The position numbers and the translations under genes are program-made. From Candidatus Poribacteria bacterium (GTDB taxonomy: Bacteria; Poribacteria; WGA-4E; JAJDTR01): DNA of 64,000 bases. Each line of letters opens with the position of its first letter. Within the stretch, counting starts at the first letter, position 1. Below, in pieces: positions 5,549-38,073 of this stretch. The stretch covers positions 2,496,001 through 2,560,000 of the forward strand of contig CBDCTK010000002.1 in NCBI GenBank assembly GCA_965222225.1. The letters run 5' to 3'. The notes beneath the pieces were generated by a model. The model saw nothing but the letters and a program-made list of their open reading frames with translations, searched no databases and was not told where the DNA came from.

Positions 5549-5621
5549 ATCAACCGACTGAATAAGGAGTAAGATTTCCTATCGCCTTTCCTATTCGGTC
5601 AGTTGATCGATAGAGATCCCC
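5549..5621 (-). mobile_element. 37-nt micro-element, self-nested 73-nt composite
   Basis: Outer unit split after CTATCG by an inverted inner unit at 5571-5607. Confidence 0.8.
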
Positions 5622-5827
5622 CTGTTTCTATCAGAATTGATTCGCCACAAACACCGATATCTTATGGCGGGTTGGCAGCGGTCAGCTTTTCATAATTCAC
5701 ACAAGACCTCATCGGGTTCTGGCGACTGTTAGAGATGCCGGTCAATTTGAAATCTTTGTCCTATCGTCCCATAGCTTCATGGGCCAATTTTCCGGGAGAC
5801 GGTTATTGAATCACGGCCAATCGTCGT

Positions 5828-7117
5828 TTAAGTAAGTAATTCCTCGTGATGCCGCACAACTTTGTTTATCGCATCAATGACCATATCGGCATATCCGGGT
5901 GGCGGATCGATAAACACAGGCATTCCGACAATTCGAGGGTGCACCTCCTCGGTAACGGGTAGACTGCCTTCCGGATAACCCGGGTAGTCGCCGCTCAACG
6001 GACCTCTTCCACTCCCATACAGGTCGAAGCCTTCAGCAAAGAGTTTCAAACGATGCGTCAGTGGATAGGCGCGCCACAGCGTTATAATACCCTCCGCACT
6101 CAGCGCTGCGTCGAAACTATTGACATCCAGTCCATTGAGTTCCTCAGGGTTATAGATAAAAGGAAAACCGCCATAGAAGCCCGCCGGACGAGATTGTGGA
6201 TAATTCCTAATAGGATGCAACCCCGGAAGGCCTCGCACACCGTTGTAGATTTTGTCTCGGTAAGCCAGTTTCTTTGCATTGCGTTCATCCAGACTATCCA
6301 TCATCGCCAAGCCCACAGCGGCTGCCCACGCATGCATCCGGAACTTCAACCCTAACATTAACGGTATTAATAGCTTTATCTCCGGGTCTTCGATTTCTTC
6401 CGCCAGCCCCGCGCGGTTGAGATGACAGAAGAGCAGAATCCGCTCGTAGTACGTGCGGTTGTTAGTCACGATCAAACCGCCTTCGCCGCCGGGGATGGGC
6501 TTGCCGTTTATTGGATCTCCCTGCATCGAAAAGCACCCGATATCCCCTTGCGTCCCAAGTTTCCGGCCCTCCCACTCCGCGCCATGGCAATGGCTGCAAT
6601 CTTCAATCACCGGCAAGCTGTGCTTGCGGGCAATCCCCAAAATTTCATCCATGTTGCAAGGGTTGCCGTATAAGTGAACGATACTAATCGCACGGGTGCG
6701 GGGTGTGATTTTTTTCTCCATGTCCACCGGATCGATGAGGAGCGTGTCCGGCTCAATTTCACAGAAGACGGGACGCGCTCCCATCCAAATCACAGGCGAG
6801 ATGGAGCAAATCCACGTATACCCCGGATGAATCACCTCATCACCGGGCCCGACACCCGCCGCATAATATGCGGCCCAGAGGGTAGATGTTCCGTTGTGCT
6901 GGCTCAGGCAATACCTTGTCCCCAGGTATTCACGGAATCGAGTTTCTAAATCACCGGGCAATCCACTGTCTGTCTGCGAATATATGCCCGTATCAATCAT
7001 TTGACATACCATTCGCCTAATCTTTTCCGTTGGTGGAGACCAGTTCTCCTGGCTCGGGATGGTCACTGCCTTAGGTCCACCAAGAATGGCAAGGTGAGAT
7101 TTTGTATCGGTTCCCAT
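5828..7117 (-). CDS. DegT/DnrJ/EryC1/StrS family PLP-dependent aminotransferase
   Basis: NGTSTL, GVGPGDEVI, VHLYG, IEDCSH, CFS...K.IPGGEGG. Confidence 0.9.
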   Translation of the reverse strand: MGTDTKSHLAILGGPKAVTIPSQENWSPPTEKIRRMVCQMIDTGIYSQTDSGLPGDLETRFREYLGTRYCLSQHNGTSTLWAAYYAAGVGPGDEVIHPGYTWICSISPVIWMGARPVFCEIEPDTLLIDPVDMEKKITPRTRAISIVHLYGNPCNMDEILGIARKHSLPVIEDCSHCHGAEWEGRKLGTQGDIGCFSMQGDPINGKPIPGGEGGLIVTNNRTYYERILLFCHLNRAGLAEEIEDPEIKLLIPLMLGLKFRMHAWAAAVGLAMMDSLDERNAKKLAYRDKIYNGVRGLPGLHPIRNYPQSRPAGFYGGFPFIYNPEELNGLDVNSFDAALSAEGIITLWRAYPLTHRLKLFAEGFDLYGSGRGPLSGDYPGYPEGSLPVTEEVHPRIVGMPVFIDPPPGYADMVIDAINKVVRHHEELLT

Positions 7118-7434
7118 GTTATTTTGCCGTCACCCTTTTTGAAGTGTCAGTTTCTCCGTTCCGCGCGTATCTTAAACGAAAAATCGATCAGTGTCAATGA
7201 CAACCGCCACCACTGACCGTATTGGGAAAGCCGGCGAAAGTAGCAGTGATGAGAAACAAGCGAATAGCCCAACACAATTACATCTCAGTTTTTGGATATT
7301 CTTCCTTGGTAAGGATTTGATGACCGGCGCCGTTTCGCAATGAAAATCAACAGACGCGCGGCCCCATTTTGGGTTAAGGCCGCGCTCAGAATGCCCACCA
7401 AAACAAGACAAATCCAACAATCAGGAAGCATCTA

Positions 7435-8439
7435 CTACATTCCCAGAAACAGATCGCGTCCTTTAACAAGACTCTCCAATTTCCCAAGTGCGACACTACG
7501 GGGCAGCATCCACAAACCGCAGTCGGGGACAACGTGTAACCGATCCACGCCAATAATACTCGCACCGGTCTCTATCCGTTTGGCGACCAGTTCCGGCGAT
7601 TCGATTTGCAAATCTTTGATGTCAATCACGCCCAATCCGATCTCGATTCGAGAGTCGTATTTCGCAAAGTGCTTGAGTTCATCATAGCCGCGTCGAGCAA
7701 ATTCGAGCACAAACGCATCCACTCCGACTTCCAATAGCTTCGGGAGCAACGCTTCATAATTCCCCTTTTGGACGGTCTGTCCGCCGTAGTTGCCCAAACA
7801 GATGTGAACGCCGGATCTGCCAGGGATGCCTGCGGCGACAACGTTGATTGCCTCAATCGCCCACTCGATGTCTTGCGGATGCCCGACGATTGACGCCTCA
7901 TCAATCTGAAGAAAGTCCGCATGAATGTCTCTTACCTGCTCACTCAGCACTTTGGCAATCGCCATCGCCAACGATCGAAGATTGGGGTAGTAATCATTAA
8001 TCAACACTCGTGATAACATGTGAGGGCCTGTAAACGTGAACTTGAGCGGTTGTTTCGTTAATTGCCGTGACCCCTCAAATTCACCACGCAAATCTAGCCG
8101 CCCGTGATCAATCTCTCCCACCACAACGCCCGCAGGCTCGTCGCGATATGCCAGGTCCGCATCGTTGCGCATCCGCTCGATTAGCGAACGCGGAAATTCT
8201 GTCGAAATCCCTGCAAGCCGTTGGGCGTAGTGATCAATCATCCCGTTCGTCTTCTCGTGACAGTACAGGGAACGGAAGATCTCGCCGTCGGAGATTAGGT
8301 CTAAACCGATATTTTCTTGATCCTTGATTGTTGCCTTAATTGCGTCGAGGATAGCTTCCTGGCTTGCAGTCTGAGTCAACCACCTCGGCAACGGAAAGCT
8401 CCCGACAACGCTTGTTTCAATGCGTCTTTGGTTTGACAT
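7435..8439 (-). CDS. Cobalamin-independent methionine synthase II family protein (single-barrel MetE-like)
   Basis: VVGSFP, ISDGE, QIDE, HICLGN, LEFA and PDCG zinc-binding motifs. Confidence 0.85.
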   Translation of the reverse strand: MSNQRRIETSVVGSFPLPRWLTQTASQEAILDAIKATIKDQENIGLDLISDGEIFRSLYCHEKTNGMIDHYAQRLAGISTEFPRSLIERMRNDADLAYRDEPAGVVVGEIDHGRLDLRGEFEGSRQLTKQPLKFTFTGPHMLSRVLINDYYPNLRSLAMAIAKVLSEQVRDIHADFLQIDEASIVGHPQDIEWAIEAINVVAAGIPGRSGVHICLGNYGGQTVQKGNYEALLPKLLEVGVDAFVLEFARRGYDELKHFAKYDSRIEIGLGVIDIKDLQIESPELVAKRIETGASIIGVDRLHVVPDCGLWMLPRSVALGKLESLVKGRDLFLGM

Positions 8440-8625
8440 TTTCAGCGCGTGTCCTCAATAACGTACCTTTTGTAAATGGGTAACTGTTTAGTATAATGAT
8501 TTCTAGCGAGAATGAGTGGCAATTACTTATGATATAAGGGGTGAATGGCTTAACTAATGTTTGCCTAATTTTTGCCAAGACACACCTAGTGCCATTAGCT
8601 ACTGTACCATTTATTGTAGATATTT

Positions 8626-8818
8626 ACATTCCGCTCCGCCGGAGCGGAAAAGATAGACGTTTCTTGGCTACAGACATAGCACTCCGCTGGAGTGCAAGAC
8701 ATAACCAACCCATAGCTACAGAGGTATAACGCTGCTGCAAGAGTCTCGCTCCAGCGGAGCGACATGTCTGTAGAAAGCGGATGTATGACCGTCTTGTGCT
8801 CCAGCGGAGCACTATGTT
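8626..8818. repeat. Cluster of four REP-like palindromes (GCTCCGCTGGAGC core; CTACAGACAT/ATGTCTGTAG flanks) in two inverted pairs
   Basis: ccgctccgccggagcgg, gcactccgctggagtgc, cgctccagcggagcg, gtgctccagcggagcac. Confidence 0.75.
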
Positions 8819-8903
8819 AGGCAGTCTTAACCATGCGAGGGTTGACTGCTACCACTAAACACTTTCGTAAATGGTAGTATTCCTTTTCTACTTCCACGAA
8901 AAC

Positions 8904-11585: not shown

Positions 11586-11681
11586 GTTTCTCCCTCTTGA
11601 ATGTGCATAGAGGCGGCGGAGCCCGCTCTCACAGAATAAACGAATTTGATTCGAATATGCTGTCAATCCGTGCTCTAACGC

Positions 11682-15795: not shown

Positions 15796-16036
15796 TGTTG
15801 TGTCAGTGTTATCCAGACCGTATTGAGTTCAGGGCTGCGATTTCGCATACCGTGCCTGATTCCCGATTGCGTTCATCAAGAACTATACCACCGATGGTCA
15901 CAAGTATCATTCTGCAAGGAGCTCATCAATGAAACAAGTGAGTGGTGAATGGTTAGTGGGCTTTTTCATCCGCTACTCACCGCTCGACCACTCACTTGTC
16001 ATCAAAAGGCTCCATTTACCGCTGTTTAAGGAATAA

Positions 16037-16206
16037 TACCATTTCTTTAGATTCGCAGTGCATTATAGGCATCAATCAAGTCTCTCCAATGCGGGGCAAG
16101 AGGATCTCTATCGCATTCGCTATTCGCTCATTTGATTCCCGCCTACGGAGAATGTGAAGAATATAACCGATACATCATAATGCACTATTATTCAAGCGAA
16201 ATGGAA
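16037..16206. mobile_element. MITE (TACCATTTC family), internally deleted, carrying a 37-nt micro-element at 16100-16136
   Basis: Homology to 1823-2000; insertion sits in the CGGGGCA..CCCG hairpin loop. Confidence 0.75.
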
Positions 16207-16238
16207 TAACCATCAGTATCAAAACACCTGCCAATGGC

Positions 16239-17036
16239 TTACTTAGTCTTCAGGGAAGCCCACACGGTAGCGAGCTTGCCGCTCGGCTCAACGGCAGTCG
16301 GGCTATCCATGAGAGCCATTATCTGATCCTGAGTGAGTGCATCGTCGTAGACTGCAACTTCATCTACAACACCGTGATATCCATGGGCTCCCGGATTCCA
16401 GGGCTGGGCGCCTATAATGAGACCCAACTCACCCGCCGTGTCGAAATTTGTCCTGATCGGCTTTCCCGGGATGTCTCTAGTGTGGTGGACCTCGCCGTTT
16501 ACCCAACCGGTTAGGGTCTTTTCCGCTACGCTATACGTCCAGGCAAGGTGAGCCCACTCACCAGTCGGGATAGCCTCAGGCCCTTGGAACGAAATGGGAT
16601 TGAGATCCGTATCCTGGATTTCAGGGTACATCACGTGACCGTTACCGGATATACCACAGACCCAGCCTTCGAGGACGCCGAAACGACCTTCTGCTTGTCC
16701 TATCAGCTTGAAAGGATAGGGGGCGTCGCCGAGGTCGAAGATCCATGCGGCTGCAGTCAGCCCACCAATCTTTAGGCTATCGGAATCCTCGACCCGGACA
16801 TGGCCTTGTACAGGGTCAGCAAAGAATTCAAGCGCGCCGCCAAAGCCATCTTTTCCGGCAGTCCACTCGGATTCTCCCATGATGGCCCCATTATTTCCGT
16901 TGCCGGAACCATCTGTCACTGTATCCCCTCCACCCTCATCAAAGTTGAAGTAGATGACCAGGTTTTGAGCCGCCGCAGTAGAGGTTAACATCAAACAAGC
17001 TAACCCCGCTATGAGTGTAAAGACTAGACACTTCAT
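16239..17036 (-). CDS. LamG-like jellyroll secreted protein (paralog of 15016-15795)
   Basis: Start MKCLVF after AAGGAG; IYFNFDE; C-terminal AVEPSGKLATVWASLK. Confidence 0.9.
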   Translation of the reverse strand: MKCLVFTLIAGLACLMLTSTAAAQNLVIYFNFDEGGGDTVTDGSGNGNNGAIMGESEWTAGKDGFGGALEFFADPVQGHVRVEDSDSLKIGGLTAAAWIFDLGDAPYPFKLIGQAEGRFGVLEGWVCGISGNGHVMYPEIQDTDLNPISFQGPEAIPTGEWAHLAWTYSVAEKTLTGWVNGEVHHTRDIPGKPIRTNFDTAGELGLIIGAQPWNPGAHGYHGVVDEVAVYDDALTQDQIMALMDSPTAVEPSGKLATVWASLKTK

Positions 17037-17465
17037 TTGTTGTTCTCCTTGTATAACATGTTTAGTGAACGATGCCATCTTTCGCGAAATAAAATTGTGC
17101 AATGGTTTTTTCATACTAAATCTTGTAGTATACACCCAAATCACCTAATTCGCGGCTAGATTTCAAGGTCGAGTTTGTCTCAGTAGCGGGACATATAAGG
17201 CATTATATACAAGATTTGGTATGTCCTAATTTGACATTATACAATTCCATTACGCGGAAGGTTAGAACAGTGGTGACTTAGACACAGATTGTCAACAGAA
17301 AATAGTGGACATCGGCGTGTAGTTCGTTTTCTGCACGACGCCCGTTGTTAAATGAATTCCTCAAGCGATCTGTTGCAAGAAAACGCTTAAAGCATTGAAC
17401 CTTGTTCTTCCCTGGCTTGTGAGGCCTACTTCCACAATTCTCACCCCCTTGTTTCCAATTCAACA

Positions 17466-17520
17466 ATAAACAAAAAAGGCGTCTCCGAAGAAGCAATCAA
17501 ACTCCTTCAAAGACGCCTTA
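17466..17520 (-). terminator. Intrinsic terminator-like hairpin
   Basis: Minus strand AAGGCGTCTTTGAAG...CTTCGGAGACGCCTT followed by a T-tract. Confidence 0.5.
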
Positions 17521-18456
17521 TTGACGCGGTCACAAAAAATTCCCTTCGGGGCGAAACTCTCCTGCTCCGAACATTCGGTGGTGGTAGAGAGTTTTGGAAT
17601 TTTTCTAAATGAACTAGATTAGGAGACCATAAAGCCATTTTTCCTCCGGAAAGAACTTTAGGTCATTATACAATCAAGAGATTCGGGCGTTATACATCTT
17701 TTCAGATTCCTTGTCGATCAATTAAAATCGCTAAATCAGTCATTTTCGGCTTTTCAGAGCTAGATGTGGAATGCTGTAACGGCTCGGTATCGGAAGAGCT
17801 CAAAGTCGCGAAATCCAGAGGCCTTGCCGGATCGGGACAGGGCGGCGTTTGATGAGGTTGATTTTATTGTTGATGCCTTCGGCGATGCCGCTGGTCGTGC
17901 GGTGACAATAGTAATTGGCGATTTGGTCAATCCAGTTTGCTAGCGTCCAGCGGAAATTCGAACAGAGTCCCGCTTTCTCAGCTACGAAGGACCACTTCCG
18001 CAGCCACTCGATTGCCTTCTCTTTCGTCAAATTGCACTCAACGATATGCTGCAGACAGTCATTGAGTCAATGAGCCGTCTTGACCAGAGGAGACACCTGA
18101 TAAACGTGTTCCCCGATAGATCGGGGGCTGCTTTTCGGTTAGTCGTCCTGGTTCTTTTGCTGATTCTTTAACTGCTTGAGTTCCCGGTTGACCGCCTGCA
18201 TCACATGAAACCGGTCGGCGGTAATCGTCGCCTAGGGCAACAACTCGGCACACACAGTATCATAGGGACTCCACATGTCGATGACGACTTCTTGAATCTG
18301 TGCGCGCTCGAAAGCCGATAGCTGTTCAAGTCGCGCCCTGAGTTTCTCTTGGGTTCTCGCTTTGAGGAAATCGACGACTTCTTTCATGTCCAGATTCGTC
18401 AGAATCAAGGCGAAGTCCCCTTTTCCCTTCCGCAACGCAATTTCATCAATACCCAA

Positions 18457-18529
18457 CGGAGTCTCTATCGATTAACCGACCGAATAGGGAGGGCAATAGA
18501 TAATCCTGCTCGCTATCCGCTCGGTTGAA
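18457..18529 (+). mobile_element. 37-nt micro-element, self-nested 73-nt composite inside ISL3 transposase
   Basis: Splits NLKR|LGIDE; inner inverted unit at 18471-18507. Confidence 0.8.
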
Positions 18530-18812
18530 CGTTTGAGATTGGCAACGGGGGTTAAGGGGATGCGACATCTCGTTTCGTGGAGGGAGATGCTTTCAATCTG
18601 GCCATAAGTCAACCCTTCAGTGCTGGGTACCGCGCTGATGTTGTTCTCTCGAACTTGGTGGAATATCCAATCTTGGTAACGATGGGTGTAATCGCGTCGC
18701 TCGTCGACAAAGCCGAAGGATTCGGAGAAGGCACCTTCGCAGTCTTCACGGAAGAATCGACGGAAATTAGTCAGCTTGCCACAGTGAGAGCATACCGCCG
18801 TCTGAGATGCCG

Positions 18813-18862
18813 ATCAACTGACTGAATAAGGAAGGCGATAGCAAATCCTGATAGAGATCCCT
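18813..18862 (-). mobile_element. 37-nt micro-element plus 13-nt head of a second unit, inside ISL3
   Basis: Reverse complement reads AGGGATCTCTATC + AGGATTTGCTATCGCCTTCCTTATTCAGTCAGTTGAT. Confidence 0.8.
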
Positions 18863-19000
18863 TCACTGTCCCATGAAATCCTATCTAGACCAACCTCGGC
18901 AGAAACTACCTGGTAGTTGGGAATGTCGATTCGTTGAATTATAGTCATTGTGATTAAGAATTACACATATGGGATTTACTTGGTTCGGTTTGTAGTAGCA

Positions 19001-19037
19001 ATCAAGGGAGCGAATAGCGACTGCGATAGAGATCCCT
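19001..19037 (-). mobile_element. 37-nt micro-element in the loop of a TTTGTAG...CTACAAA REP hairpin
   Basis: Reverse complement AGGGATCTCTATCGCAGTCGCTATTCGCTCCCTTGAT. Confidence 0.8.
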
Positions 19038-19116: not shown

Positions 19117-20193
19117 CTATAGTAATTTTGAGAATCCTTCTTTTACTGTTGCCTTAGTCGTAAGGTCAACAAATATGAAGTTTTTGCACAAGGGTTTAAA
19201 AAGTGGAACTTCGTCAATAAATTTTCTGTGCCACTTATCCCCAGATACAAATGTAATACCCTTGTGATACGTATAAAGCAAGTATTCAGCATCTCTAAGG
19301 ACGTTTTGGGGCGCTGCATTTTCGGAATTCTCACGAAGGTAGAGCTGAATTGTGTAAATCCATATCGCTGCTCTGAGTGCGTATGGTGCGAATCTATTGA
19401 TAGGCGGCATATCTTCCTTCAGAAACCTGTTAAAGATCTGGGTATGTTCTTCTGGCGTAAGTATAGGATCGAATAGCCTACCTAGCCGCTGTAATTTATC
19501 ATATGCAGCACTGCGATCGCTCGAATCATGGTTGAGTAGGCTTGCAGCTACTTGATTTGCGTTTTCCAGAGAATCTGCCTTATATGTATCAAAGAGTGTT
19601 TTGATGGATGTTTGGAAGAGTTGTTTGCCTTCCCGCAGAAAGCCTTCGGTTTCTACTTTTTTTAGAATGCGTTCTATCTCTGGATAATACGTTTGGTTTG
19701 CTCTCAGGACCTCTTTTAACCTGTTCACCCACTCTTTTTCAGAAAGATTGTCTGTATTTTTAAACAAACCCAACAATCCTTCTTTCAACGGATTGATTAT
19801 AGAGTCCAGATTTCTATAAAACTCTTCGCTTTCTTTCAGCATCTCTATGGTTTCACTTGAAGCTTCCTTGAACTCCAAAAGTTCTTGTTCCGAGCATTCG
19901 CGAACTGACTTCATTGCGTTTGCACTTCCGATAGGTAAGGGTTTAGCGGATTCCTCTGTAAGCAAGTCCATTTTTGCGTATTCCGACCAATGGGGAATCC
20001 AGATGATATTTTCTAGATTGAGGAGAGCATTATGCCTTTTTAGCCCATGTCTAGCAACTTCAGTGAATAGGATTGATGGACAAAGGATTGTGTATCTGGA
20101 AACTAATGCCTCACGTTGTTCACGATCTAAGGACATCCAAAATGATTTGTCCGGTAGCAAGAGGTTGCTCTGATTGTTCATCGTCATGTGCAT
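19117..20193 (-). CDS. Hypothetical protein (AT-rich), possible PIN-like nuclease fold
   Basis: 358-aa ORF; N-terminal LLLPDKS and C-terminal RDAEYLLY...FVSGDK resemble split PIN acidic motifs. Confidence 0.6.
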   Translation of the reverse strand: MHMTMNNQSNLLLPDKSFWMSLDREQREALVSRYTILCPSILFTEVARHGLKRHNALLNLENIIWIPHWSEYAKMDLLTEESAKPLPIGSANAMKSVRECSEQELLEFKEASSETIEMLKESEEFYRNLDSIINPLKEGLLGLFKNTDNLSEKEWVNRLKEVLRANQTYYPEIERILKKVETEGFLREGKQLFQTSIKTLFDTYKADSLENANQVAASLLNHDSSDRSAAYDKLQRLGRLFDPILTPEEHTQIFNRFLKEDMPPINRFAPYALRAAIWIYTIQLYLRENSENAAPQNVLRDAEYLLYTYHKGITFVSGDKWHRKFIDEVPLFKPLCKNFIFVDLTTKATVKEGFSKLL

Positions 20194-20643: not shown

Positions 20644-20726
20644 AGGACGGGAAATGAACTGCGATACTACAAACCGCACAACGTAAGCCCCGAACGTATA
20701 ATTCTTAGTTTCAATGACTATAGAAA

Positions 20727-22036
20727 TGTACTGCCATCGGAAATTTAGACCATTATCTTAAACAAGATTATGATACAATTTCCAATCGGATTGAAAGGAG
20801 ATTCCGATGGCTAAACGAAGGAAATTCACGCCCCAATTTAAGGCTGAAATTGCTATTGAAGCACTTACCGGTCAAAGTTCACAAGCGGAACTTTGTCGGC
20901 GGCATAACCTCAGCCAAGAGCAACTATCAAAGTGGAAACACCAACTTCTTGACAACGCGGCGACTCTCTTTGAATCCACTGACAAGCAATCTAACGACCA
21001 TAGGGAACGGATTGCTCAACTGGAGCAACTCGTTGGGATCAAACGAACGAATAGTGAGTGCGATAGAGATCCCTATTGAGCTTGGCGTTAGACATCCAAA
21101 AAAAAGCCTCGACTTTGCTCAATTGAATTGGTCTCAAAAACGACAGATGGTTGAAGCTTTGCACACCGATTACCCGGTTCGACACATTTGTGATGTACTC
21201 GGCTTCAATCGGAGCAGTCTGTATTATCAACCGAGGCACGACCCCATTGAACTTGAGCTACGAGACGAAATTGAGAAACTGGCAGCCCGTTATCCGAAAT
21301 ATGGCTATAGGCGTATCACCCAGCTACTGTTGCGAATGGGGTACTCTGTCGGTTATCGACGCGTTGCTCGATTGATGAAAGCAGAGAATCTTTCGGCAGC
21401 CGTAAAACGTACTTGTCAAACTACCAAATCGTTTGACGGCTGCGGTCAATGGGGGAAGGGAACTCTATCGCCCTCCTTATTCAGTCGGTTGATCGGCTTG
21501 AGAACCTTGACATCTGTCGTCGAAATCAGGTTTGGGTCGGTGATATTACCTATGTCCGACTCAAAGAGCAATTCGTCTATGTTTCGGTGTTAATGGACGT
21601 GTTCACCCGAATGATAAGAGGTTGGCGACTGAGTCGGCACTTGACAGAACCTCTCACATTGAGACCGTTGCAACAGGCATTAAGCCAAAGCGTTCCGGAA
21701 ATTCACCATAGTGACCAAGGGGTTCAGTACCTTTCGAACGCTTATATCTCCACTCTCATTGGTCATGGAGTTGAGATTTCCTTAGCTCATAGGGGGCGTC
21801 CTTGGGAGAACGGTTATGCCGAAAGGCTTATCCGAACCCTCAAGGAAGAAGAAGTCCACCTCAACGAATACAATGATATAATGGATGCCAGAGAGCGAGT
21901 CGGTCATTTTATTGTAAAAGTCTATAACCAGAAACGATCTCACTCGGCGTTAGGCTATTTGACGCCGGTTGAATTTGAGCAACAATACTTGTCTTAACTT
22001 TGCTTATTTGTGGTCTAAATTAGCGTTGGCACTTCA
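20727..22036 (+). mobile_element. IS3-family insertion sequence, full length, both ORFs frameshifted by 37-nt micro-elements (21038-21074, 21457-21493)
   Basis: TG...CA ends with about 26-bp imperfect IR (TGTACTGCCATCGGAAATTTAGACCA / TGAAGTGCCAACGCTAATTTAGACCA) and AAA flanks. orfA MAKRRKFTPQFK HTH; orfB YGYRRI, WVGDITY, HHSDQG, ENGYAER. Confidence 0.92.
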
Positions 22037-22071
22037 AAAAGATTATGACGCGTTCCGCGAAGCAGTAGAAG

Positions 22072-24010
22072 ATGAATAGGGCGAACAGGATGTCCCCCGG
22101 CATTACCTGGAAATCCATAGCTATAACGATCGCCTTAATTCCATTCAACTTCTATTGGATAATTGCTGGTGAAGTGGGACTTGTCGGATATGCTCTGAAC
22201 ACCTACGCTGTCCCATTCTACAATGTCATATTTTCTGTATTTGTGCTCGTGCTTCTGAGAGTTATCGTAAAAGGGACTCTCGGCGTTTCCATCCTTGACA
22301 ATGCGGAACTGCTTACCATCTACATCCTATTGAGCGTAGCCTGTGCCCTCCCCTCAATAACTTTCATGACGCTCTTGGTTACGAGCGTAGGTCACGCTTT
22401 CTGGTATGCAACTCCGGAGAACGAGTGGCAGCAACTGTTCTGGAACTATCTCCCCGACTGGCTTGTCGTTAAGAACAGGAGCGTTCTGGGCGGTTATTAT
22501 GAGGGAGAGTCAACCTTATACACGCTTTCTCATGTCAAGGCTTGGCTACAGCCGGCAGCATACTGGACGATATTCACCACTTGCCTCATATTCGTGATGT
22601 TGTGTATAAACTCGATCTTGAGGAAGCGATGGATCGAGCGCGATCATCTGGCTTATCCTGTCACACAGATCGCCTATCAATTAGCCTGCAACACCAACAG
22701 GCTCTTCTCCAGCAAGATGCTCTGGATGGGGTTTGCGGTAGCCGCCTCGATAGCTATCATTAACGGGTTGAGCTTTCTGTTTCCCGCCATACCCACCATC
22801 CCAGTAAAACGAGCCGGCAGTTGGCACGGCATCGGTCATCTATTTACAGAAAAACCGTGGAATGCCATCGGCCACATCAGCTTCTCATTCTACCCGTTTG
22901 TCATCGGTCTCGGTTTCCTTATGCCTCTGGATCTTGCATTCAGCAGTTGGCTCTTCTTTCTATTCTACAAGGCGGAGCTGATACTCACCAGCGCTCTGGG
23001 CATAAACATACCCGGATTTCCGTATCACAATGAGCAATGCTTCGGAGCGGCAGTAGGTATATGCCTGACACTTCTAATCTACAGTAGGAAATATGTATTC
23101 GGCGTTTTTAAGGCAGCGTTTACGAATAGCCCCATGGATGATGAAGACGAACCTGTGGGATACAGATTTGCCATAGTGGGCATCATTCTGGGATTCGCTT
23201 TTCTCGTTATGTTTTCTCTAAAGATTGGGATGTCTCCCTGGCTCATTCCCATATTCTTTGCCATCTACTTTGTCATATTACTCGTGATAACCAGAATGCG
23301 CGCCGAGCTGGGTTTCCCTGTTCACGCCATGGAAAATATGCCAACTTACGGCATCTTGACAGGTTTAATCGGGACGCGAACTCTCGGGGCAAACAATCTC
23401 GTAGCGCTATCACTTTATAAGTGGTTCAACAGAAGTTTTACCAGCAATTCGATGCCGCATCAGATGGAGGGGTTTAAACTGGCTGACAGGTCGGGGATCA
23501 ACACTAGAAGGTTGTTTTTTTCTATCATAGGAATAACAACTCTAGGTTCAGTCACCGTGTTCTGGGTCATACTCCATTCATTCTATAAAGTCGGTGCGGT
23601 ATCGGGGGGGCGGAGGCGGTTGGTCCCTGCATTTTGGATGGTATGTATATGACGGGCTAAAGAACTGGCTTTATTCCTCGACGGAACCCAACTATTACGC
23701 TGTGGGGGGAATGACTTTCGGTTTGCTGTTCTCGCTTATACTGACGTTCATGAGGTCAAGGTTCCCTTTCTGGCCGTTCCACCCCATCGCTTTTGTGATA
23801 TCCGGTGATTGGGGCATGAAATACTTATGGAGTTGCATGTTGGTCAGTTCTGTCGTAAAATGGATGGTGCTGAAGCTTGGAGGGCGAAGAGCATCGCAGC
23901 AGCTTGTCATCTTTGCCATCGGTCTTATGCTTGGCGATTTCATCATAGGCGGTTTATGGAGCCTGCTTGGAGTATTCACAAAGACGCCAATGTATAACTT
24001 CTGGCCATAG
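22072..24010 (+). CDS. DUF6785/DUF6784-type multi-pass membrane protein (putative transporter); frameshift at G-run near 23604
   Basis: Hydrophobic; ELLTIY, WYATPENEW, LAYPV, RMRAELG; second ORF ends WPFHP...GLMLGDF. Confidence 0.75.
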
Positions 24011-25601: not shown

Positions 25602-25711
25602 AGATTTTGTCCTGATTGCCGCCTTCAGGATTTCGGACGGCGCCGACCGATTTTCCCGGATGCGTGGGCTTGGATTGCACCGAAGATCGAGTTGTGCGGT
25701 TTGTAGTAGTG

Positions 25712-25766
25712 ATCGCCCCAGTGGATAGCGAAGGTGATAGAAGATCTCAGTGCGATAGCGATTTTC
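25712..25766 (-). mobile_element. Degenerate 37-nt micro-element plus 18-nt head of a second unit, next to a GTTTGTAGTAG REP arm
   Basis: Reverse complement GAAAATCGCTATCGCACT + GAGATCTTCTATCACCTTCGCTATCCACTGGGGCGAT. Confidence 0.6.
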
Positions 25767-30050: not shown

Positions 30051-30109
30051 TTCATCGTCGCCCGCATTTATTTGACACGTATCCAGTAACGGATATTGGA
30101 GAGGCACCA

Positions 30110-32212
30110 ATGACGGAACCAACGGAAAAATTGGAGACTATCGAAATCTGCGATGTATGTGTCGCGGGTGGAAGTCCGGCGGGAATAACAGCCGCCGTAA
30201 GGGCGGCACGTGAAGGAGGGAAAGTCATCCTCGTCTCCGCCAATCGGCATCTCGGCGGTGTACTATCGAACGGCCTAAGTTGCTGGGACACCATGTATGA
30301 TGGGTATCGCGCGCCCATTCAGGAAGAGTGGTTGGAGAAGATGCGCACCCATTACCGAGAGACGTACGGTGAAGATTCGGAAAATTATCGGATTTCGCAA
30401 AGCGGGCCTTTCGGAGGGGGAAGGTTCAAGGGCGCTTACACTTGGGAGCCCCACATCGCCGAACGGATGTTCGAAGAATTGGTGGCCTCGGAAAGCGGGA
30501 TCCGGGTCGTTCGGGAGTATCTTCCGGACGCGGTGGAGCGCGCCGGCAGAGAAATAAGGTCAGTATTTTTCCGTTCCCTTGCCGGGGGAGACCCAATGCG
30601 CGTCAGCGCCCAGGTCTTTATCGACGCGACCTACGAATCCGATGTCGCCGCACTGGCAGGCGTGCCCTATCGGGTCGGTCGAGAAGCCCGCGGCGAATAC
30701 AACGAAATCTATGCTGGGAAAATTTGGGTCAAGCGCAGTGGGAACGAGGCCAATTTCTCCCACGGTAGCGACGAAGCCTTGCAATGGCCTAGGGCAGCGC
30801 GGCGCGGCGATCTCAATCTCCGCCCCTGGTGGGGAACCACCCAGGAGATTTTTTCCGAGAGCACAGGGGAAGGCGACCGTGCCGTGCAGGCCGCCAATTT
30901 TCGCGTCTGCCTAAGTTCCGACCCCGATAACCAGATCCCGGTTGAACCACCCGACGGGTATGACCGGCGGGAGTTCCTGCCGATCGTAGAAGGCGACCCT
31001 GAAGAGGGTGCGCTCTATCCGCATCGTATCAAGAGTGGCCTGTTGAACTATCCGCTCACGGCGTTTCCGGGCGTCATTCCGATACCGGGTTCAAAGTGCG
31101 ATTGGAATGCCGCCGCCATTCCCGGCGGTGTCGACGATTTTCCTGATGGCAACTGGGAGACACGTCAAGCGATCATTAAACGGCACCGCGATTTCGCCCT
31201 CGGTCTGCTCTTTTTTCTGCAACACGACGACGCCGTGCCCGAGAAGATTCGCGGGGAGGCATTGAGTTGGGCCCTCCCGGTGGACGAGTTCGCCGACAAC
31301 GGACATTTCCCACACGAGTTTTATCTGCGGGAAGGTAGGCGCATCATCGGCCGTTACGTCATGCGCGAGAGCGACGCCTGTATCGGCACCGCTCTCGACC
31401 GAGCGCCGGTGCACGCCGATGCGGTCGCTATCGCGGAATGGCTGATGGACTCTCACGACTGTACTCCGGAGCGCCTTCACGGCGCCGAGGGTGACGGGTT
31501 TACCAGCCTGTCCGAGTACACACGGCCCTCCCAGATTCCCTACCGTTCCTTCCTCCCAAACGACATTGATAATCTGATCATGGGTTTGGCGGTTTCCGCG
31601 ACGCACGTGGCATGGGGTACCGTCAGGGTGGAACCTTGCTGCATGCACATCGCGGAAACAGCGGGGCACGCTGCGGCTTTGGCCCTCGCATCGGGGGTTG
31701 CGCCGGGGGACATTGAGGTCGAGGCGCTGCAGCGGCGGCTCGTCGAAAACCGGGTCATGCTGACGTTTTTCAATGAATTCGACATGGCGACTGATGCGTC
31801 ATGGGTATCTGCCATCCAGTTCCTCGGAACCAAGGGTTTTTTCAGCTCTTTCAACGCCAAGCCCGACGACCCACTTACCAAAGCGGTGGGGGAAATCTGG
31901 GCACGAGCATTCGGCAGCCTGATGGATGGTTCACACGACGCAGCGAACTGCGCGCGGCAGGTCGCGGAGGCTGAAAAGGGCGAACAGATTACGATTACCG
32001 CAGATCGTTTTCGCGCCCTTCTGCAGAGGGAACTTGACTGCCGCGATACCGAATTTGCGGTCAATCTTTCGGCGGAATTGAGTGGGTACCGTAGGACCGG
32101 CTCGGATGGAATGGTCTTGACCCGGGCGGAGGCGAGCCTGCTGGTGTATCGCCTTCTTGCGATTAGCAGTGCCACTCAGAGCGAAGATCGGCTTCTTCAA
32201 GCTGACAGCTAG
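30110..32212 (+). CDS. FAD-dependent oxidoreductase (paralog of 27867-29783)
   Basis: Start MTEPTEK after GGAGAGG; VAGGSPAG, FIDATYE, YLREGRR, VRVEP. Confidence 0.88.
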   Translation: MTEPTEKLETIEICDVCVAGGSPAGITAAVRAAREGGKVILVSANRHLGGVLSNGLSCWDTMYDGYRAPIQEEWLEKMRTHYRETYGEDSENYRISQSGPFGGGRFKGAYTWEPHIAERMFEELVASESGIRVVREYLPDAVERAGREIRSVFFRSLAGGDPMRVSAQVFIDATYESDVAALAGVPYRVGREARGEYNEIYAGKIWVKRSGNEANFSHGSDEALQWPRAARRGDLNLRPWWGTTQEIFSESTGEGDRAVQAANFRVCLSSDPDNQIPVEPPDGYDRREFLPIVEGDPEEGALYPHRIKSGLLNYPLTAFPGVIPIPGSKCDWNAAAIPGGVDDFPDGNWETRQAIIKRHRDFALGLLFFLQHDDAVPEKIRGEALSWALPVDEFADNGHFPHEFYLREGRRIIGRYVMRESDACIGTALDRAPVHADAVAIAEWLMDSHDCTPERLHGAEGDGFTSLSEYTRPSQIPYRSFLPNDIDNLIMGLAVSATHVAWGTVRVEPCCMHIAETAGHAAALALASGVAPGDIEVEALQRRLVENRVMLTFFNEFDMATDASWVSAIQFLGTKGFFSSFNAKPDDPLTKAVGEIWARAFGSLMDGSHDAANCARQVAEAEKGEQITITADRFRALLQRELDCRDTEFAVNLSAELSGYRRTGSDGMVLTRAEASLLVYRLLAISSATQSEDRLLQADS

Positions 32213-32266
32213 AGATCTCTATCGCACTCACTATCCGTTCGCTTGATCGCTATTCACTCGCTTGAT
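32211..32266 (+). mobile_element. 37-nt micro-element plus 19-nt tail of a second unit
   Basis: AGAGATCTCTATCGCACTCACTATCCGTTCGCTTGAT + CGCTATTCACTCGCTTGAT. Confidence 0.8.
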
Positions 32267-32384
32267 CTATTAGACGGTGGTATGCGCAAACTAACAGTTT
32301 GCGCTACGAGGGCGTGTCAGATTTTATGGGAATTACAGGTGGTGGGTATGAGACTGCAAATACTATCAAGCACACAGAAGCTCA

Positions 32385-33293: not shown

Positions 33294-33392
33294 TTCGCCG
33301 GAAATTGGCCTTACACTTTTCTTGCGGCAAATACTCACGTTGTAGGTGATGCGCATGAGACCGCACATGCTATCAAGCACACGGCGTGCTCA

Positions 33393-34301: not shown

Positions 34302-34436
34302 TTCGCCGGAAAATTGGCTTATACTTTTCAGGTAACTGTTTAGTCCATCGGTCTGGATTTGTCAATCCAGACCGAGCGGGCAGGGAACGCGCCGAGTAGA
34401 GTAGCACAACGCTAATCCCGACGAATCATGAGCTTA

Positions 34437-34702
34437 TACCATTTCTCTAGAATGTAGGCGCATTGATTACATGGATCCAGTAAAGATACTTGCGTGGAGC
34501 GGAATAATAAGACTTGTCTCCGCGCAAAGTCGGCGGGGCAAAGGGATCTCTATCGATCAACTGAGCGGATAGCGAAGGCGATAGCAAATCCTGCTCATTA
34601 TTCATTCGCTTGATCGCTATTTGCTCTCTTGATCCCCGCCTACGGAGAAAGTGAACGATAAAATTCAGACGTCATATGCACCATTATTCTAGCGAAATGG
34701 TA
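34437..34702. mobile_element. MITE (TACCATTTC family) carrying a 92-nt compound micro-element at 34542-34633
   Basis: Reverse-complement homolog of 1823-2000; length 266 = 178 + 92 - 4. Confidence 0.85.
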
Positions 34703-34710
34703 TTACTAAT

Positions 34711-35556: not shown

Positions 35557-35893
35557 TCTGCTCCTCTTTAATCTGATAGCGATCTTTCAGTAAATCCGAA
35601 AATCTGTAGAATCGGACATTTCAACGATGGCCCGTTTCTGCTTCCCTTCGCTTGGCGAAAAATTGCAAAAAGGGTGAGTAAGTGAAAGGGGGCTCCGGTG
35701 AGTCGGTATTTACTCCCTTTCTCTCGATATGGAATCGGGGGGATTAACCAACGGGCGAACGGCGATGGGCGGTGTGGTTTTTACTATTTAAAAGATAACC
35801 CGGAGTTCCACAGCCCCATTGAAAAGTGTCTATCAATTTAGGCGAGAAAGCTGGTTTACCAGCGTATTCACATTTGAGTGCGATATTGTCGAA

Positions 35894-37060: not shown

Positions 37061-37099
37061 CGTAAGTGTTTAGTCGCCTGTAATTAGTGGTTATTAAAA

Positions 37100-37640
37100 C
37101 CCGCGCAGCACACGAACCGGCAGTGAATCGCCGAACTATAGCAAGACGTACAATGAATTGCACTACAACGAACCTCAAAGGAATGATGATTACCCTGCAT
37201 TCGCCCTAGGTTCTGTTGACATTTCATCGCAACCAGATAGTCGAAGGGTGTGAACCACGCATGGTCCTCCGTAGGGGTTGGGTTTCCCAACCCTTTGGTC
37301 ACACATCGGAGACCATTGCGGACTTCTGTAGGTCGATTTTCATGAAGATTAAGTATTTAAATCGGTAATTCCAGTTTTCCCTAAACTCGGTAGGTGCGGT
37401 TTCCTAACCGCACCGAGCATCGTTAGGACATTACCGAATTATTCTTTTAAGCTTCATCCAAATCGACATTAGAGTGTCGAGATCTGAATCTCGACCTACA
37501 ATCTGACCAGACTCATATGGTTTCGTTCTTCCAACCCACGTTGGGCAACGGGCGAGGGGGGATCACTATCGATCAACCGACTGGATAAGGAGGACGATAG
37601 AGAATCCTATTCGCTATTCGCTCACTTGATCCTCGGCCCT
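37100..37640. repeat. Dense cluster of diverse GTAG/CTAC REP-like hairpins, the last carrying a 73-nt self-nested micro-element (37558-37630)
   Basis: GTAGGGGTTGGGTTTCCCAACCC, GTAGGTGCGGTTTCCTAACCGCACC, GTCGAGATCTGAATCTCGACCTAC, GGGCGAGG[insert]CCTCGGCCCTAC. Confidence 0.8.
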
Positions 37641-37870
37641 ACGATTGGACACACACTTCACATAAATGTCAACAGAACCTAGAATCAATAGACGAGGATT
37701 TACGCAAAAAGTGAACAAGGATGATTTTGGCAGTAATTTCATGTTGCGAGGCTCATGTAGGGAATAACGATTGTTATTCCCTACGGCCGCTTTGAGCAAT
37801 CTTCAATTATCAAACCGAAGATGGAATCCTCCAACTGCGTGCGTCCTATAGACTAAACAGTTACCATATT

Positions 37871-37907
37871 GAAGATCTCTATCGCACTCACTATCCGTTC
37901 GCTTGAT
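37871..37907 (+). mobile_element. 37-nt micro-element
   Basis: Last 34 nt identical to 32214-32247. Confidence 0.85.
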
Positions 37908-38036
37908 CGTAGCAAGAGGGGAAATCGGGGATTTGATGATCTCCGATTGCACCCTACGAAAAATGGTGGGCAGTGCCCACCCTACAGGATTGTGCAAGAA
38001 AGAAACCGAGTTTTCAAGAAAGAAGAGATTTTTATC

Positions 38037-38073
38037 AGAACCTTCTATCGCGCTCGTTGTCTACTCGCTTGAT
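38037..38073 (+). mobile_element. Degenerate 37-nt micro-element before a CCCTAC REP arm
   Basis: AGAACCTTCTATCGCGCTCGTTGTCTACTCGCTTGAT. Confidence 0.65.

Follow-up and report, generated by a model that had tools for sequence, protein, structure and literature searches.

The closest described kind of element to the repeat reported here is the small dispersed repeat (SDR) of heterocyst-forming cyanobacteria, with the REPs coming next. SDRs were reportedly described by Elhai et al. in 2008 (Genome Res 18:1484) as highly iterated, dispersed sequences of 21-27 nt that have no gene, no terminal inverted repeats (TIRs) and no target-site duplication (TSD). One SDR may reportedly lie inside another or inside a repeat of a different family, and comparisons of filled and empty sites led to their being judged mobile. 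The IS200/IS605 elements have two subterminal hairpins and a Y1 TnpA and go in 3' to a fixed target of 4-5 nt, from which no bases are lost, and integron attC sites are at least 55 nt long, form part of cassettes and are arrayed behind intI. Passages of PMC3116915, PMC3733652 and PMC2884548 mention SDRs briefly. REPs and REPINs have been treated together with the RAYTs (Nunvar 2010; Bertels and Rainey 2011, PMC3116915; Di Nocera 2013, PMC3733652), and a passage of the last of these papers gives the end tag of the REP hairpin as GTAG or CGTC.

The repeat analysed here was noticed in a 64,000-nt stretch of DNA from a Candidatus Poribacteria bacterium (contig CBDCTK010000002.1, positions 2,496,001 to 2,560,000), which we call the window. 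An initial annotation had listed 13 loci of a dispersed element, and pattern scans of the window found the unit at every one of them (Table 1). It is a 36-nt repeat with a hidden conserved hairpin, present in about 1000 copies across the genome of a sponge symbiont: where 13 copies had been counted, a genome-wide pattern scan gave 1086 in G000, the genome of the window, with 939 distinct 36-mers and 467 stem/loop combinations. On the strand that forms the hairpin, which is opposite to the one first used for the consensus, the unit reads G^ATCAA n1n2 GA n3n4 GrATA n4'n3' GA n2'n1' GCGATAG aGATCCc; the earlier consensus described a real unit, but part of its tail is variable. In the window, the 15-nt head of the unit with at most 2 mismatches was matched 8 times against 0.13 expected, a count reached by 0 of 100 shuffles. 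A 29-nt core pattern allowing up to 5 substitutions gave 18 window matches on the hairpin strand, one of them false (19826-19862, 0/4 pairs). The non-overlapping scan skipped the copy at 32212-32248, and with it the window holds 18 unit copies or part-copies over 13 loci.

Table 1. Copies of the unit in the window, and the empty MITE copy of the same stretch
Feature	Positions	Hairpin strand	Context and remarks
Doublet	5548-5621	outer +, inner -	outer unit's 5' part starts at 5548, its tail ends at 5621; inner unit 5572-5608, after CTATCG of the outer unit's other strand
Single unit	16101-16137	-	0 mismatches, 4/4 pairs; centre of MITE copy 16034-16210; after GTAGGCGGG(G/A), where the empty MITE reads CA(TC)
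Doublet	18457-18530	inner (18470-18506) +, outer -	inside ISL3 transposase gene (- strand), between HTH_Tnp_ISL3 and DDE_Tnp_ISL3 matches; adds in-frame stop
Unit 18812-18848 with extra tail copy GATAGAGATCCC to 18862	18812-18862	+	near 5' end of the ISL3 gene hit by the 18457 doublet; adds in-frame stop
Single canonical unit	19000-19036	+	after GTAGTAGCA; GTAG-type REP context
Single canonical unit	21037-21073	+	orfA part of IS3-family element 20724-21997; empty allele in public contigs (two runs) joins 21033 to 21075 with 6 other letters; paralogue at C2:4078943 has another unit nested within
Single canonical unit	21458-21494	-	IS3 orfB, between HTH_21 and rve matches; empty allele in contigs (two runs) joins 21453 to 21492 with 3 other letters
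Degenerate unit	25711-25747	+	4 substitutions, 3/4 pairs; after GTAGTAGTG
Canonical unit 32212-32248 with 5' half of another (32249-32267) before it on its own strand	32212-32267	-	stacked or nested
Doublet and one half unit	34542-34635	inner (34555-34591) +, outer -	centre of MITE copy 34434-34706; 94 nt against 6 in the empty MITE
Doublet	37558-37631	inner (37571-37607) +, outer -	
Single canonical unit	37872-37908	-	37 nt at 37873-37909 identical to copy at 32213-32249
Single unit	38038-38074	-	2 substitutions, 4/4 pairs; immediately behind GTAGGG
Empty MITE copy, same family	1820-2004		centre GTAGGCGGGGCATCTTGCCCCG; within the window, the empty counterpart of the sites at 16101 and 34542

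Scanning the genome and other Poribacteria MAGs, as had been suggested, found the pattern in every searched genome of the source genus (594-1296 matches in each of the other nine species) and about 200 matches in a second Poribacteria genus; outside these two genera there were almost none (151 genomes of the phylum searched). The reversed control pattern had 0 matches in 31 genomes, and an earlier, related pattern had 0 in a shuffled 2-Mb control. The unit is genuine sequence: its presence in every genus genome searched and in contigs of other studies, two of which supply contigs that cover 16107-18861 with 4 differences, excludes an assembly artefact. Against Rfam, the whole window at E<=1 gave one chance miRNA match, elsewhere in the window, and a 701-nt slice at E<=10 gave chance matches only, far under the gathering scores; no paper describing the unit was found in the Poribacteria literature. 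The first impression that this is not a described family thus stands for the sequence but not for the kind, since SDRs exist.

The unit had also been called non-palindromic and free of hairpins, and in this respect the annotation has to be corrected. Four variable positions of the hairpin strand covary as base pairs around a tandem G.A mismatch; 93-96% are paired in G000 (Watson-Crick or G.T in 1014, 1009, 1035 and 1042 of the 1086 copies), against 14-63% for shifted or crossed control pairings. The wobble cells on this strand are 481 G.T/T.G against 87 A.C/C.A; G.T is tolerated on the hairpin strand only, and the paired positions otherwise vary freely with complementarity kept. An independent set of 120 distinct copies from other MAGs, selected with a pattern that leaves the paired positions free, has 96.9% of its cells paired against 66.1% in shuffles, a value equalled by 0 of 500 shuffles, and changes on both sides in 182 cells against 30; slid controls pair at 22-61%. 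From its base to its tip, this imperfect, protein-sized hairpin is made up of ATC/GAT, an internal loop of AA.GC, two base pairs, the tandem G.A, two further pairs and the GrATA loop. Its conservation is read from covariation and not from energy, the fold being thermodynamically weak and no more stable than its shuffles (z between -1.5 and +1.4 with DNA and between -1.1 and +0.9 with RNA parameters). With four covarying pairs, a REP-like element can no longer be dismissed for want of a palindrome.

Paralogous and orthologous pairs of filled and empty sites show that the unit is a true insertion. The left joint of the insert is exact, behind a target G, whereas the right one varies over 0-3 nt; in exchange for 1-4 nt of target, mostly starting with C, the site gains about 36 nt. 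The loss of 1-4 nt had been proposed from the window, and both the paralogous pairs and the in-window MITE series, which runs from an empty copy through one unit to a doublet with an extra half-unit, agree with it; so do the filled/empty pairs with the claims that there is no TIR beyond GATC and no target duplication. Among 58 strictly filtered pairs, all within G000, those seen most often have exactly 36 nt in place of CA (6), CG (6) or C (3), and in 34 clean pairs the G of the empty site is followed by C (27), A (5) or G (2). Filled and empty sites with 100% identical flanks exist. The hairpin strand has G at -1 in 968 of the 1086 copies, which is the usual 3' C seen earlier on the other strand, and the preceding bases are CG in 460 copies and GG in 363. 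The anticipated polymorphism between genomes is there too: behind one RAYT gene, the downstream REP carries a unit in G000, G001 and G005 but none in G002, G004 and G009, and empty IS3 alleles were seen in contigs of other studies. That IS3 and ISL3 genes are interrupted is upheld by inserts placed between the transposase domain matches, near the 5' end of the ISL3 gene and in the orfA part of IS3.

Other units, REPs, the MITE centre, the IS3 and ISL3 genes and CRISPR repeats all serve as hosts of the unit. It inserts preferentially into other repeats that form hairpins and into its own GCGATAG box, hence the Russian-doll nests; because many copies are carried inside other mobile repeats, independent insertion events are far fewer than copies. 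In each of the four window doublets (at 5548, 18457, 34542 and 37558), a unit lies in opposite orientation within another one of a different stem type, directly behind CTATCG, a motif that precedes 47 of the 1086 copies in G000. GTAG lies within 10 nt upstream in 225 copies, some of them insertions into GTAG-REPs, and directly before the unit in 27. The genome's true CRISPR repeat is a different 37-mer, inside which units sit; with the unit dispersed and devoid of TIR and TSD, the early exclusion of a MITE and of a CRISPR repeat remains valid.

On contig C2, 1042 of 1083 copies (96%) are intergenic on a gene map that takes in 76% of its length, and their orientation to neighbouring genes is unbiased (380 vs 331). 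Single copies make up 479 of the 719 clusters, and adjacent copies have the same orientation in 152 cases and are opposed in 23. The folding strand is the locally C-rich strand in 724 of the 1083 copies (Fisher 2e-28), and we call that strand lagging on the grounds of local skew and not of a mapped origin, because the GC skew of the genome is patchy. The bias persists in single-orientation clusters (455 vs 201, with 63 mixed clusters dropped) and in 170 isolated, unique-flank, non-REP copies (113 vs 57, p = 3e-5).

No enzyme is encoded within the unit or beside its copies. Together with the insertion sites, this agrees with the original proposal of a minimal, non-autonomous unit mobilised in trans by an enzyme neither within nor beside it; the enzymes then suggested fared worse, and no mobilising enzyme was found, each candidate tested failing the phyletic correlation with the unit. 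IS110 transposases (PF01548) had 0 matches in G000, which is 94.9% complete, and TnpB was not found there either. G000 carries 5 Y1_Tnp loci, and 4/4 genomes of the second unit-bearing genus have Y1_Tnp too; two Y1 loci have units on both sides. The RAYT near units was rejected, since at 12 of 12 loci examined it has its own, different REP (GCCCCnnnGGGGC...), into which the flanking units are insertions; downstream of the gene this REP holds a unit at 3 loci and is empty at 9. The same RAYT type is found in 3/3 unit-free genomes of another genus and was not found in 2/4 genomes of the second unit-bearing one. A second Y1 type has close matches (at least 93% identical) in only 3 of 31 genomes. 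A multi-copy Xer/Cre-like recombinase appeared to correlate with the unit in the 31 genomes and lost the correlation in a wider sample, being present in 5/20 genomes of a genus essentially without the unit and missing from 2 unit-rich genomes. The reverse transcriptase (RT) of G000 is a single weak RVT_1 match (27.5 bits) that neighbours a type I restriction gene; its relatives were found in 8 of the 31 genomes, but 4 unit-rich genomes of the source genus lack them, and they have internal stops in 4 of 5 matches from other species of that genus.

We give a little better than an even chance to the unit being a micro mobile element, about 36 nt long and of the REP/SDR kind, that is non-autonomous, gene-less and propagated in trans. 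Only copies whose single strand folds would be copied, the hairpin being what a structure-specific nuclease or strand transferase would recognise. Single-stranded DNA at the replication fork would be the substrate, and the process would be polar, cutting precisely at the 5' end and loosely at the 3' end; the enzyme would be unlinked to the copies, and our leading guess, for which no gene was identified, is an HUH/Y1-type or other enzyme acting on ssDNA hairpins. A clearly smaller, still appreciable probability goes to a parasite of the host machinery with no dedicated enzyme, in which a putative free, folded 36-nt single strand would enter the nascent lagging strand, for example by ligation across a 1-4-nt Okazaki-fragment gap or by short template-switch copying. 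A conserved host enzyme would then do the job, so that no accessory gene would co-vary with the unit, and indeed none of the tested accessory candidates tracks it; the lagging-strand excess, also among the isolated copies, the loss of 1-4 target nt and the exact 5' and ragged 3' joints fit as well. However, the 5' boundary is exact and the unpaired bases are conserved, both of which point to a specific protein and not to chance switching, and the restriction to two genera needs a separate cause, such as introduction of the unit.

Spread through RNA, with a transcript that folds, is reverse-transcribed and integrates at nicks, seems improbable to us. A pentaloop of GNRA-like form and sheared G.A in tandem are typical of RNA, G.U-type wobble is confined to one strand, RNA parameters give the same minimum-energy fold, covarying pairs included, in 7 of 8 window copies, and the polar joints are compatible with target-primed copying; unit-bearing sequence occurs in RNA-library contigs, though this is no proof of transcription. 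The weak RT, sporadic among unit-rich genomes and with stops in most of its matches from the genus's other species, speaks against it, as do the bias for replication strand where gene orientation has none and the lack of an Rfam family match. Just as doubtful is an ordinary REP/REPIN family whose cognate RAYT, a Y1 HUH transposase, was missed by our pairing. A 36-nt, extragenic, high-copy imperfect palindrome would suit it, and so would the Y1 loci, the units around two of them and the nearby GTAG, but the best RAYT locus has a REP of its own that, downstream of the gene, is empty at most loci examined, this RAYT type is distributed over genomes otherwise than the unit, GTAG is seldom immediately before the unit, and the doublets are nested copies of unlike stem types, not REPIN hairpins. 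We know of no description of REPs that lose target bases. Very improbable, finally, is a cis-acting host element under selection (a protein binding site, terminator or RNA stabiliser), or an artefact from adapters or misassembly. The conserved structure and intergenic location would befit the former, yet the unit interrupts transposase genes and CRISPR repeats, nests in itself, has no preferred orientation towards genes and leaves empty and filled sites with identical flanks, all of which contradicts a selected host element; an artefact would not recur in contigs of several independent studies and every genus genome searched. A host role may exist alongside mobility.

Compared with known systems, the unit is, like MITEs, non-autonomous, short, intergenic and mobile, but it has neither TIR nor TSD, its ends sharing GATC only, and it inserts in the centre of a real MITE of the window. 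Unlike CRISPR repeats it is dispersed, mostly in single-copy clusters, and IS110/bridge-RNA elements differ by their DEDD transposase, which has no match in G000. It resembles attC in that a folded single strand would be read by its structure, with paired positions that vary, unpaired or mismatched ones that are conserved, and no duplication; it is, however, shorter, and the recombinase followed up does not track it. With IS200/IS605 and their gene-less derivatives it shares the absence of TIR and TSD, one or more 5' bases that define insertion, putative recognition of a hairpin on one strand, and a replication-strand bias. It differs from them in having one hairpin, a one- or two-base target and lost target bases, with no TnpB in G000 and no TnpA linked to the unit; in IS200/IS605 elements such as IS608 the active strand lies on the lagging-strand template, opposite to the bias seen here. 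REPs and REPINs come closer in size, extragenic location, copy number, imperfect hairpin and clustering, in a genome that has Y1 transposases, and some copies stand behind GTAG as REPs do; yet the unit has no constant GTAG/CGTC tag and no cognate RAYT was found, REPs are among its targets, and in place of the REPIN, an inverted doublet that forms one long hairpin, the four parsed window doublets are nested unlike copies. The closest likeness is to the SDRs: a unit of tens of nucleotides, dispersed, gene-less, without TIR or TSD, nested, and with filled and empty sites. The unit occurs in a different phylum, is unrelated in sequence and is longer (36-37 nt against a reported 21-27 nt). To our knowledge, its 4-bp covarying stem around a tandem G.A, the exact G^ joint with 1-4 nt replaced, the replication-strand bias and the invasion of CRISPR repeats have not been reported for SDRs.

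The unit, a dispersed repeat of about 36 nt, is a real, very abundant and lineage-restricted micro mobile element. In the window, the 15-nt head of its consensus gives 8 matches with up to two mismatches where 0.13 are expected, and none of 100 shuffles reached 8. The core pattern matches at all 13 of the loci listed in the initial annotation, and the window total comes to 18 copies or part-copies, four loci being doublets (one unit nested in another) and two carrying extra half-units; a further core-pattern match at 19826-19862, forming none of the four stem pairs described below, was rejected as a false positive. The whole genome (5.70 Mb in two contigs, the window being positions 2496001-2560000 of contig C2) holds 1086 copies of the 29-nt core with up to three substitutions, comprising 939 distinct 36-mers and 467 stem/loop combinations. 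The pattern read on the strand of the initial annotation matches 934 times in this genome and never in a shuffled 2-Mb control. With one mismatch allowed, the counts are 866 here, 594-1296 in each of the nine other congeneric species searched, and 206-212 in each of four species of a second genus from another family; among the remaining relatives one genome has 3 matches and the other 16 have none, and a reversed control pattern gave none in any genome of the same set. A sample of the phylum contained matches in 17 of 151 genomes, with counts of 1, 1, 3 and 19 outside the two unit-bearing genera. The genome with 19 matches (21 at two mismatches) has them all on 4 contigs of a 130-contig MAG, and these contigs may be mis-binned. 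A scan of one genome per species with the unit core returned at least 99 stretches, the matches listed all lying in 'Candidatus Poribacteria bacterium' MAGs, and viral contigs gave none. So small an element has no room for a gene or for classical transposon ends, and still it is present about 1000 times per genome in one genus and about 200 times in the second.

What had been taken for variable positions is in fact a hidden hairpin. On the strand opposite to the original consensus (hereafter F), the unit reads G^ATCAA n1n2 GA n3n4 GrATA n4'n3' GA n2'n1' GCGATAG, followed 3' by about seven less conserved bases, most commonly AGATCCC. The four "variable" positions are base pairs, Watson-Crick or G.T in 1014, 1009, 1035 and 1042 of the 1086 copies, with three or four pair types in quantity at each stem pair, while shifted or crossed control pairings reach 14-63%. 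Since G.T/T.G cells on F (481) far outnumber A.C/C.A cells (87), F is the strand that must fold. The same was found in 120 distinct copies drawn independently from other MAGs by a pattern that leaves the stem positions free: 96.9% of cells pair versus 66.1% in shuffles (0 of 500 reach the observed value), changes on both sides occur in 182 cells versus 30, and sliding the partner by 1-3 columns lowers pairing to 22-61%. Two conserved GA dinucleotides oppose each other in mid-stem and form a tandem G.A/A.G mismatch, which is known from RNA as well as DNA as a stable non-canonical motif. Folding with RNA parameters gives one common minimum-energy structure in 7 of 8 window copies, with ATC/GAT pairs added at the foot. 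Because this fold is no more stable than that of shuffled sequence (z from -1.5 to +1.4 for DNA and -1.1 to +0.9 for RNA), the initial annotation was right, in thermodynamic terms, to see no strong hairpin; biologically the statement fails, as the pairs covary on F. The pairing is maintained by some selection, acting on the fold of one strand, and the population has diversified with foldability kept, as would be expected if only foldable copies get copied. Variant tails occur as well. One head-to-tail array of units has the usual tail replaced by TCTTGTAGG, with stems that differ from copy to copy, and nine copies in one alignment (A1), from three closed MAGs of 4.7-4.9 Mb that probably belong to the second unit-bearing genus, have a tail beginning TCTT.

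The unit is mobile, and its movement leaves an exact 5' joint after a G, a replacement of 1-4 nt of target and a ragged 3' joint. To find empty sites, the 45-nt sequences on either side of each of the 1086 copies were compared with the genome by BLAST, and places with both flanks side by side were collected; 58 filled/empty pairs passed strict filters, several of them with 100% identical flanks. The left joint in clean pairs always lies immediately 5' of ATCAA, after the target G. The most frequent results are exact 36-nt inserts in place of CA (6 pairs), CG (6) or C (3), the other pairs showing 0-4 nt lost and 0-3 additional bases at the right joint. Directly 3' of the G, the empty site has C in 27 of 34 clean pairs, A in 5 and G in 2; genome-wide, a G stands at -1 in 968 of 1086 copies (CG 460, GG 363). 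The REP just 3' of a RAYT gene (a Y1-type transposase paired with REPs) is filled in the genome of the window and in genomes G001 and G005, and empty in G002, G004 and G009. For the window loci themselves, only the MITE and an IS3 paralogue gave an empty site at the DNA level within the genome, most loci giving none; the region in five congeners is a repeat mosaic in which no clean orthologue was found, and a search for the IS3 element in relatives returned partial matches only. Contigs from public runs join 21033 to 21075 with six other letters between (runs X8 and X13) and 21453 to 21492 with three (X3 and X8), and these are copies of the IS3 that lack the two units. The stretch 16107-18861, with the unit in place, is read through in contigs of two studies, and short-read assemblies break at unit copies.

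As targets the unit prefers sequences that form hairpins, and also itself (see the table). Because the unit and other repeats recur as targets, nests, stacked tails (..ATCCC ATAGAGATCCC..) and doublets are seen; CTATCG precedes 47 of the 1086 copies, a second tail lies 3' of 107, and adjacent copies share their orientation in 152 cases versus 23 opposed. The MITE family that is hit in the window has the ends TTATACCATTTC.. and ..GAAATGGTATTAC, a central GTAG-type hairpin and about 30 flank matches in the genome.

Recurrent targets of the unit and coordinates of associated features (^ marks the joints; C2, contig CBDCTK010000002.1)
Feature	Position or sequence	Remark
GTAG-type REP, first target position	GTAGGGTGCG^CA^CTGCGCACC	
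GTAG-type REP, second target position	..CTGCG^C^ACCAGCC	
Second REP	..CAGCGGGG^CG^ACAGGT	
MITE centre	GTAGGCGGGG^CAT..	
The unit itself	G^CG^ATAG	own box; also own 3' stem arm and own loop
Other strand	CTATCG^C	
MITE copy, empty	window 1820-2004	
MITE copy, filled	window 16034-16210	one unit
MITE copy, filled	window 34434-34706	doublet and half unit
527-aa ORF	window 22069-23649	DUF6785 match end to end (E = 4e-151)
Direct repeats	window 15255-15705/16490-16952	spacing 1235 nt
Direct repeats	window 32337-32679/33344-33687	spacing 1008 nt
Direct repeats	window 43520-44397	spacing 737 nt
Head-to-tail array	C2:1578265-1578701	8 units, 38-nt period
CRISPR array (L134)	C2:2705823-2707934	outside the window; 20-copy unit cluster
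Weak reverse-transcriptase match (L133)	C2:4499563-4501572	670 aa
Xer/Cre-like recombinase	C2:460255-461199	paralogues at 3989323, 1313887, 3335622, 4161171
PhyH paralogues	C2:3089590-3090378, 1987346-1988146, 2042405-2043238, 2254155-2255006	PhyH match in 4/4 scanned

On a crude gene map covering 76% of C2, 1042 of 1083 copies are intergenic. F runs along both neighbouring genes in 380 cases and against both in 331, so an mRNA role tied to strand is unlikely; RNA-library contigs do cover units, which is no demonstration of transcription. The ISL3 transposase gene in the window has taken two, with in-frame stops between its HTH_Tnp_ISL3 and DDE_Tnp_ISL3 matches, and the IS3 element has also taken two, one in the orfA region and the other between the HTH_21 and rve matches. 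The DUF6785 ORF lies just downstream of this interrupted IS3, and the window also carries diverged direct repeats (71-88% identity) unrelated to the unit. A CRISPR array elsewhere on C2 adjoins genes for Cas7 (DevR/Csa2), Cas1 and Cas4 and a weak Cas5 match under the Pfam cut-off; its 37-nt repeat begins GTAGCAACC, its spacers are about 35-36 nt, and units lie within the repeats, again after ..GCG or ..GG. Such insertions may impair the crRNA processing of this type I array. Many of the repeats are interrupted by units, and also by another insert of about 115 nt that is itself nested in a unit.

The copies are unevenly distributed between the two DNA strands, and this bias is linked to strand composition and not to transcription. 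Of 1083 copies, 724 have F on the strand that is locally richer in C (25-kb half-windows, Fisher 2e-28; similar at 10-100 kb). The excess persists at 455 versus 201 when clusters of a single orientation are counted once and 63 mixed clusters dropped, and at 113 versus 57 (p = 3e-5) for the 170 copies that stand alone, with unique flanks and neither a REP nor another unit in the vicinity. Majority gene direction explains little of it (p = 0.05-0.8). Most genes are on the G-rich strand (r = 0.51), taken here to be the leading strand. Over 28 bins, the GC skew of C2 switches sign some ten times, a pattern that points to numerous inversions or assembly joins in this repeat-rich genome, and the "lagging strand" reading, which relies on local skew in place of mapped replichores, is the weakest link in the argument.

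The proposal of the initial annotation that the unit is mobilized in trans is supported, but none of the enzymes it put forward (HUH/RAYT, IS110-like recombinase, reverse transcriptase) is. There are five Y1_Tnp loci in the genome, and units flank two of them on both sides. The best RAYT, of 157 aa, is flanked at all 12 loci examined (L012-L023, in 12 genomes of three genera) by its own inverted REP, GCCCCnnnGGGGC plus GACAGGTG/TATAG, with stems that covary from clade to clade (GCTCC..GGAGC, CACTCC..GGAGTG). Gene and repeat make a textbook RAYT-REP pair, and the REP is a target for the unit, which near this gene is an insertion into the RAYT's REP in some genomes only. Its own REP at the flanks speaks against this RAYT as the partner, and so does its distribution: of 31 relatives 18 have the type, among them all three genomes of a genus free of units, and in the second unit-bearing genus two of the four genomes gave no match. 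A 257-aa Y1 type was rejected as its close matches (at least 93% identity) are confined to three genomes, G000 (the genome of the window), G005 and, as a fragment, G009. A third type has its own GTAGTAGGCA.. REP. All four genomes of the second unit-bearing genus have Y1_Tnp, but it is also present elsewhere, so that the family as a whole does not discriminate.

TnpB and IS110 transposase each gave no match in the genome. The sole RVT_1 match is weak; relatives of this protein occur in 8 of 31 genomes, several broken (with internal stops in four other genomes), and it was rejected as partner. It abuts the gene of a type I restriction R subunit and may be a defence-associated reverse transcriptase. 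Cas1 was set aside on its presence in 22 of 31 genomes, unit-free ones included. Units lie on both sides of 101 genes, 32 of them with inverted flanks, and the recurrent families are metabolic paralogues: PhyH dioxygenases, enolase-type and GFO/IDH/MocA proteins and FG-GAP proteins, beside a DDE transposase and a Xer/Cre-like tyrosine recombinase. Six PhyH (phytanoyl-CoA dioxygenase-like) paralogues have units on both sides. The recombinase has five copies, 83-100% identical, in a larger repeated segment, and units adjoin only some of them. Its clade at 70% identity or more seemed confined to unit-bearing genera among 31 genomes; in 151 genomes it was found also in 5 of 20 genomes of a genus essentially without units and was not found in G009 and G015, both with hundreds of units, and on this distribution it was rejected as the specific partner. 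Its close relatives (70-78% identity) are scattered over three genera, which suggests a mobile element of its own. No candidate that tracks the unit was found among Y1, TnpB, IS110, RVT_1, Cas1 and the unit-flanked genes.

The general picture towards which we lean, if only slightly, is that the unit would spread by copy and paste in single-stranded form at the replication fork, handled by a structure-specific enzyme acting in trans, with joining precise at its start and imprecise at its end. A route through the host machinery, with no dedicated enzyme, would sit well with the fruitless enzyme search and leaves the exact joint after G to be accounted for; we consider it rather unlikely. A bolder reading, which we regard as unlikely, would make the unit a minimal single-strand transposon of an as yet uncharacterized type: a conserved host enzyme would stitch the folded 36-nt strand into the lagging strand during its synthesis, bridging a gap of a few bases. 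Such stitching would account together for the exact 5' joint after G and the replacement of 1-4 nt, for the bias to the lagging strand and for the lack of an accessory gene distributed like the unit. If this reading is true, it would also provide a mechanism for the unexplained small dispersed repeats (SDRs) of cyanobacteria, and such elements would be shown able to disable CRISPR arrays by splitting their repeats.

An RNA intermediate made into DNA by a reverse transcriptase could draw on the common RNA fold, against which stand the distribution of the only RVT_1 protein and the indifference of F to gene direction, and we hold this route very unlikely. We give an equally low standing to an ordinary REP served by an unrecognized RAYT: the unit has the size, location and copy number of REPs, and differs from them in that a tag, a cognate RAYT and the REPIN architecture were each looked for and none was seen. 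That the unit is a non-mobile cis element or an artefact is scarcely credible. The conserved pairing might be expected of a cis element, and the initial annotation had allowed for artefacts, unspanned junctions and missing empty sites; what was found are spanning contigs, paired filled and empty sites and orthologous polymorphism.

To our knowledge, the movement of such micro-repeats has lacked an explanation since the SDR report of 2008. The unit offers several handles on the question: closed genomes of close species that differ in filled sites, exact joints, a defined folding strand whose motif is simple (tandem G.A in a 6-position stem) and a replication-strand bias. It also bears on the annotation and biology of sponge symbionts through broken short-read assemblies, interrupted transposase genes and invaded CRISPR repeats.

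Among known systems, the IS200/IS605 model involves no loss of target bases and a strand bias opposite to that of the unit; the unit fits it in neither respect, being biased to the lagging-sequence strand and losing target bases on insertion. As tag, cognate RAYT and REPIN architecture were not found, the unit is placed outside the REP-RAYT system. No Rfam family matches it, and a full-text literature search combining Poribacteria with repeat terms returned, in the text accessible to it, no paper on such an element. The nearest described kind, by analogy, would be the SDRs of Nostoc and relatives, reportedly described by Elhai and colleagues in 2008. SDRs are small, nested and without TIR or TSD, and how they move is unexplained; the unit resembles them in each of these traits. 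Citing papers present SDRs as REP-like repeats without terminal tags, or as repeats of about 20 bp that "might be mobile" (PMC3116915, PMC3733652, PMC2884548). By this comparison the unit is best classed as SDR-like, a member of a known but poorly understood kind, and not of the REP-RAYT system.
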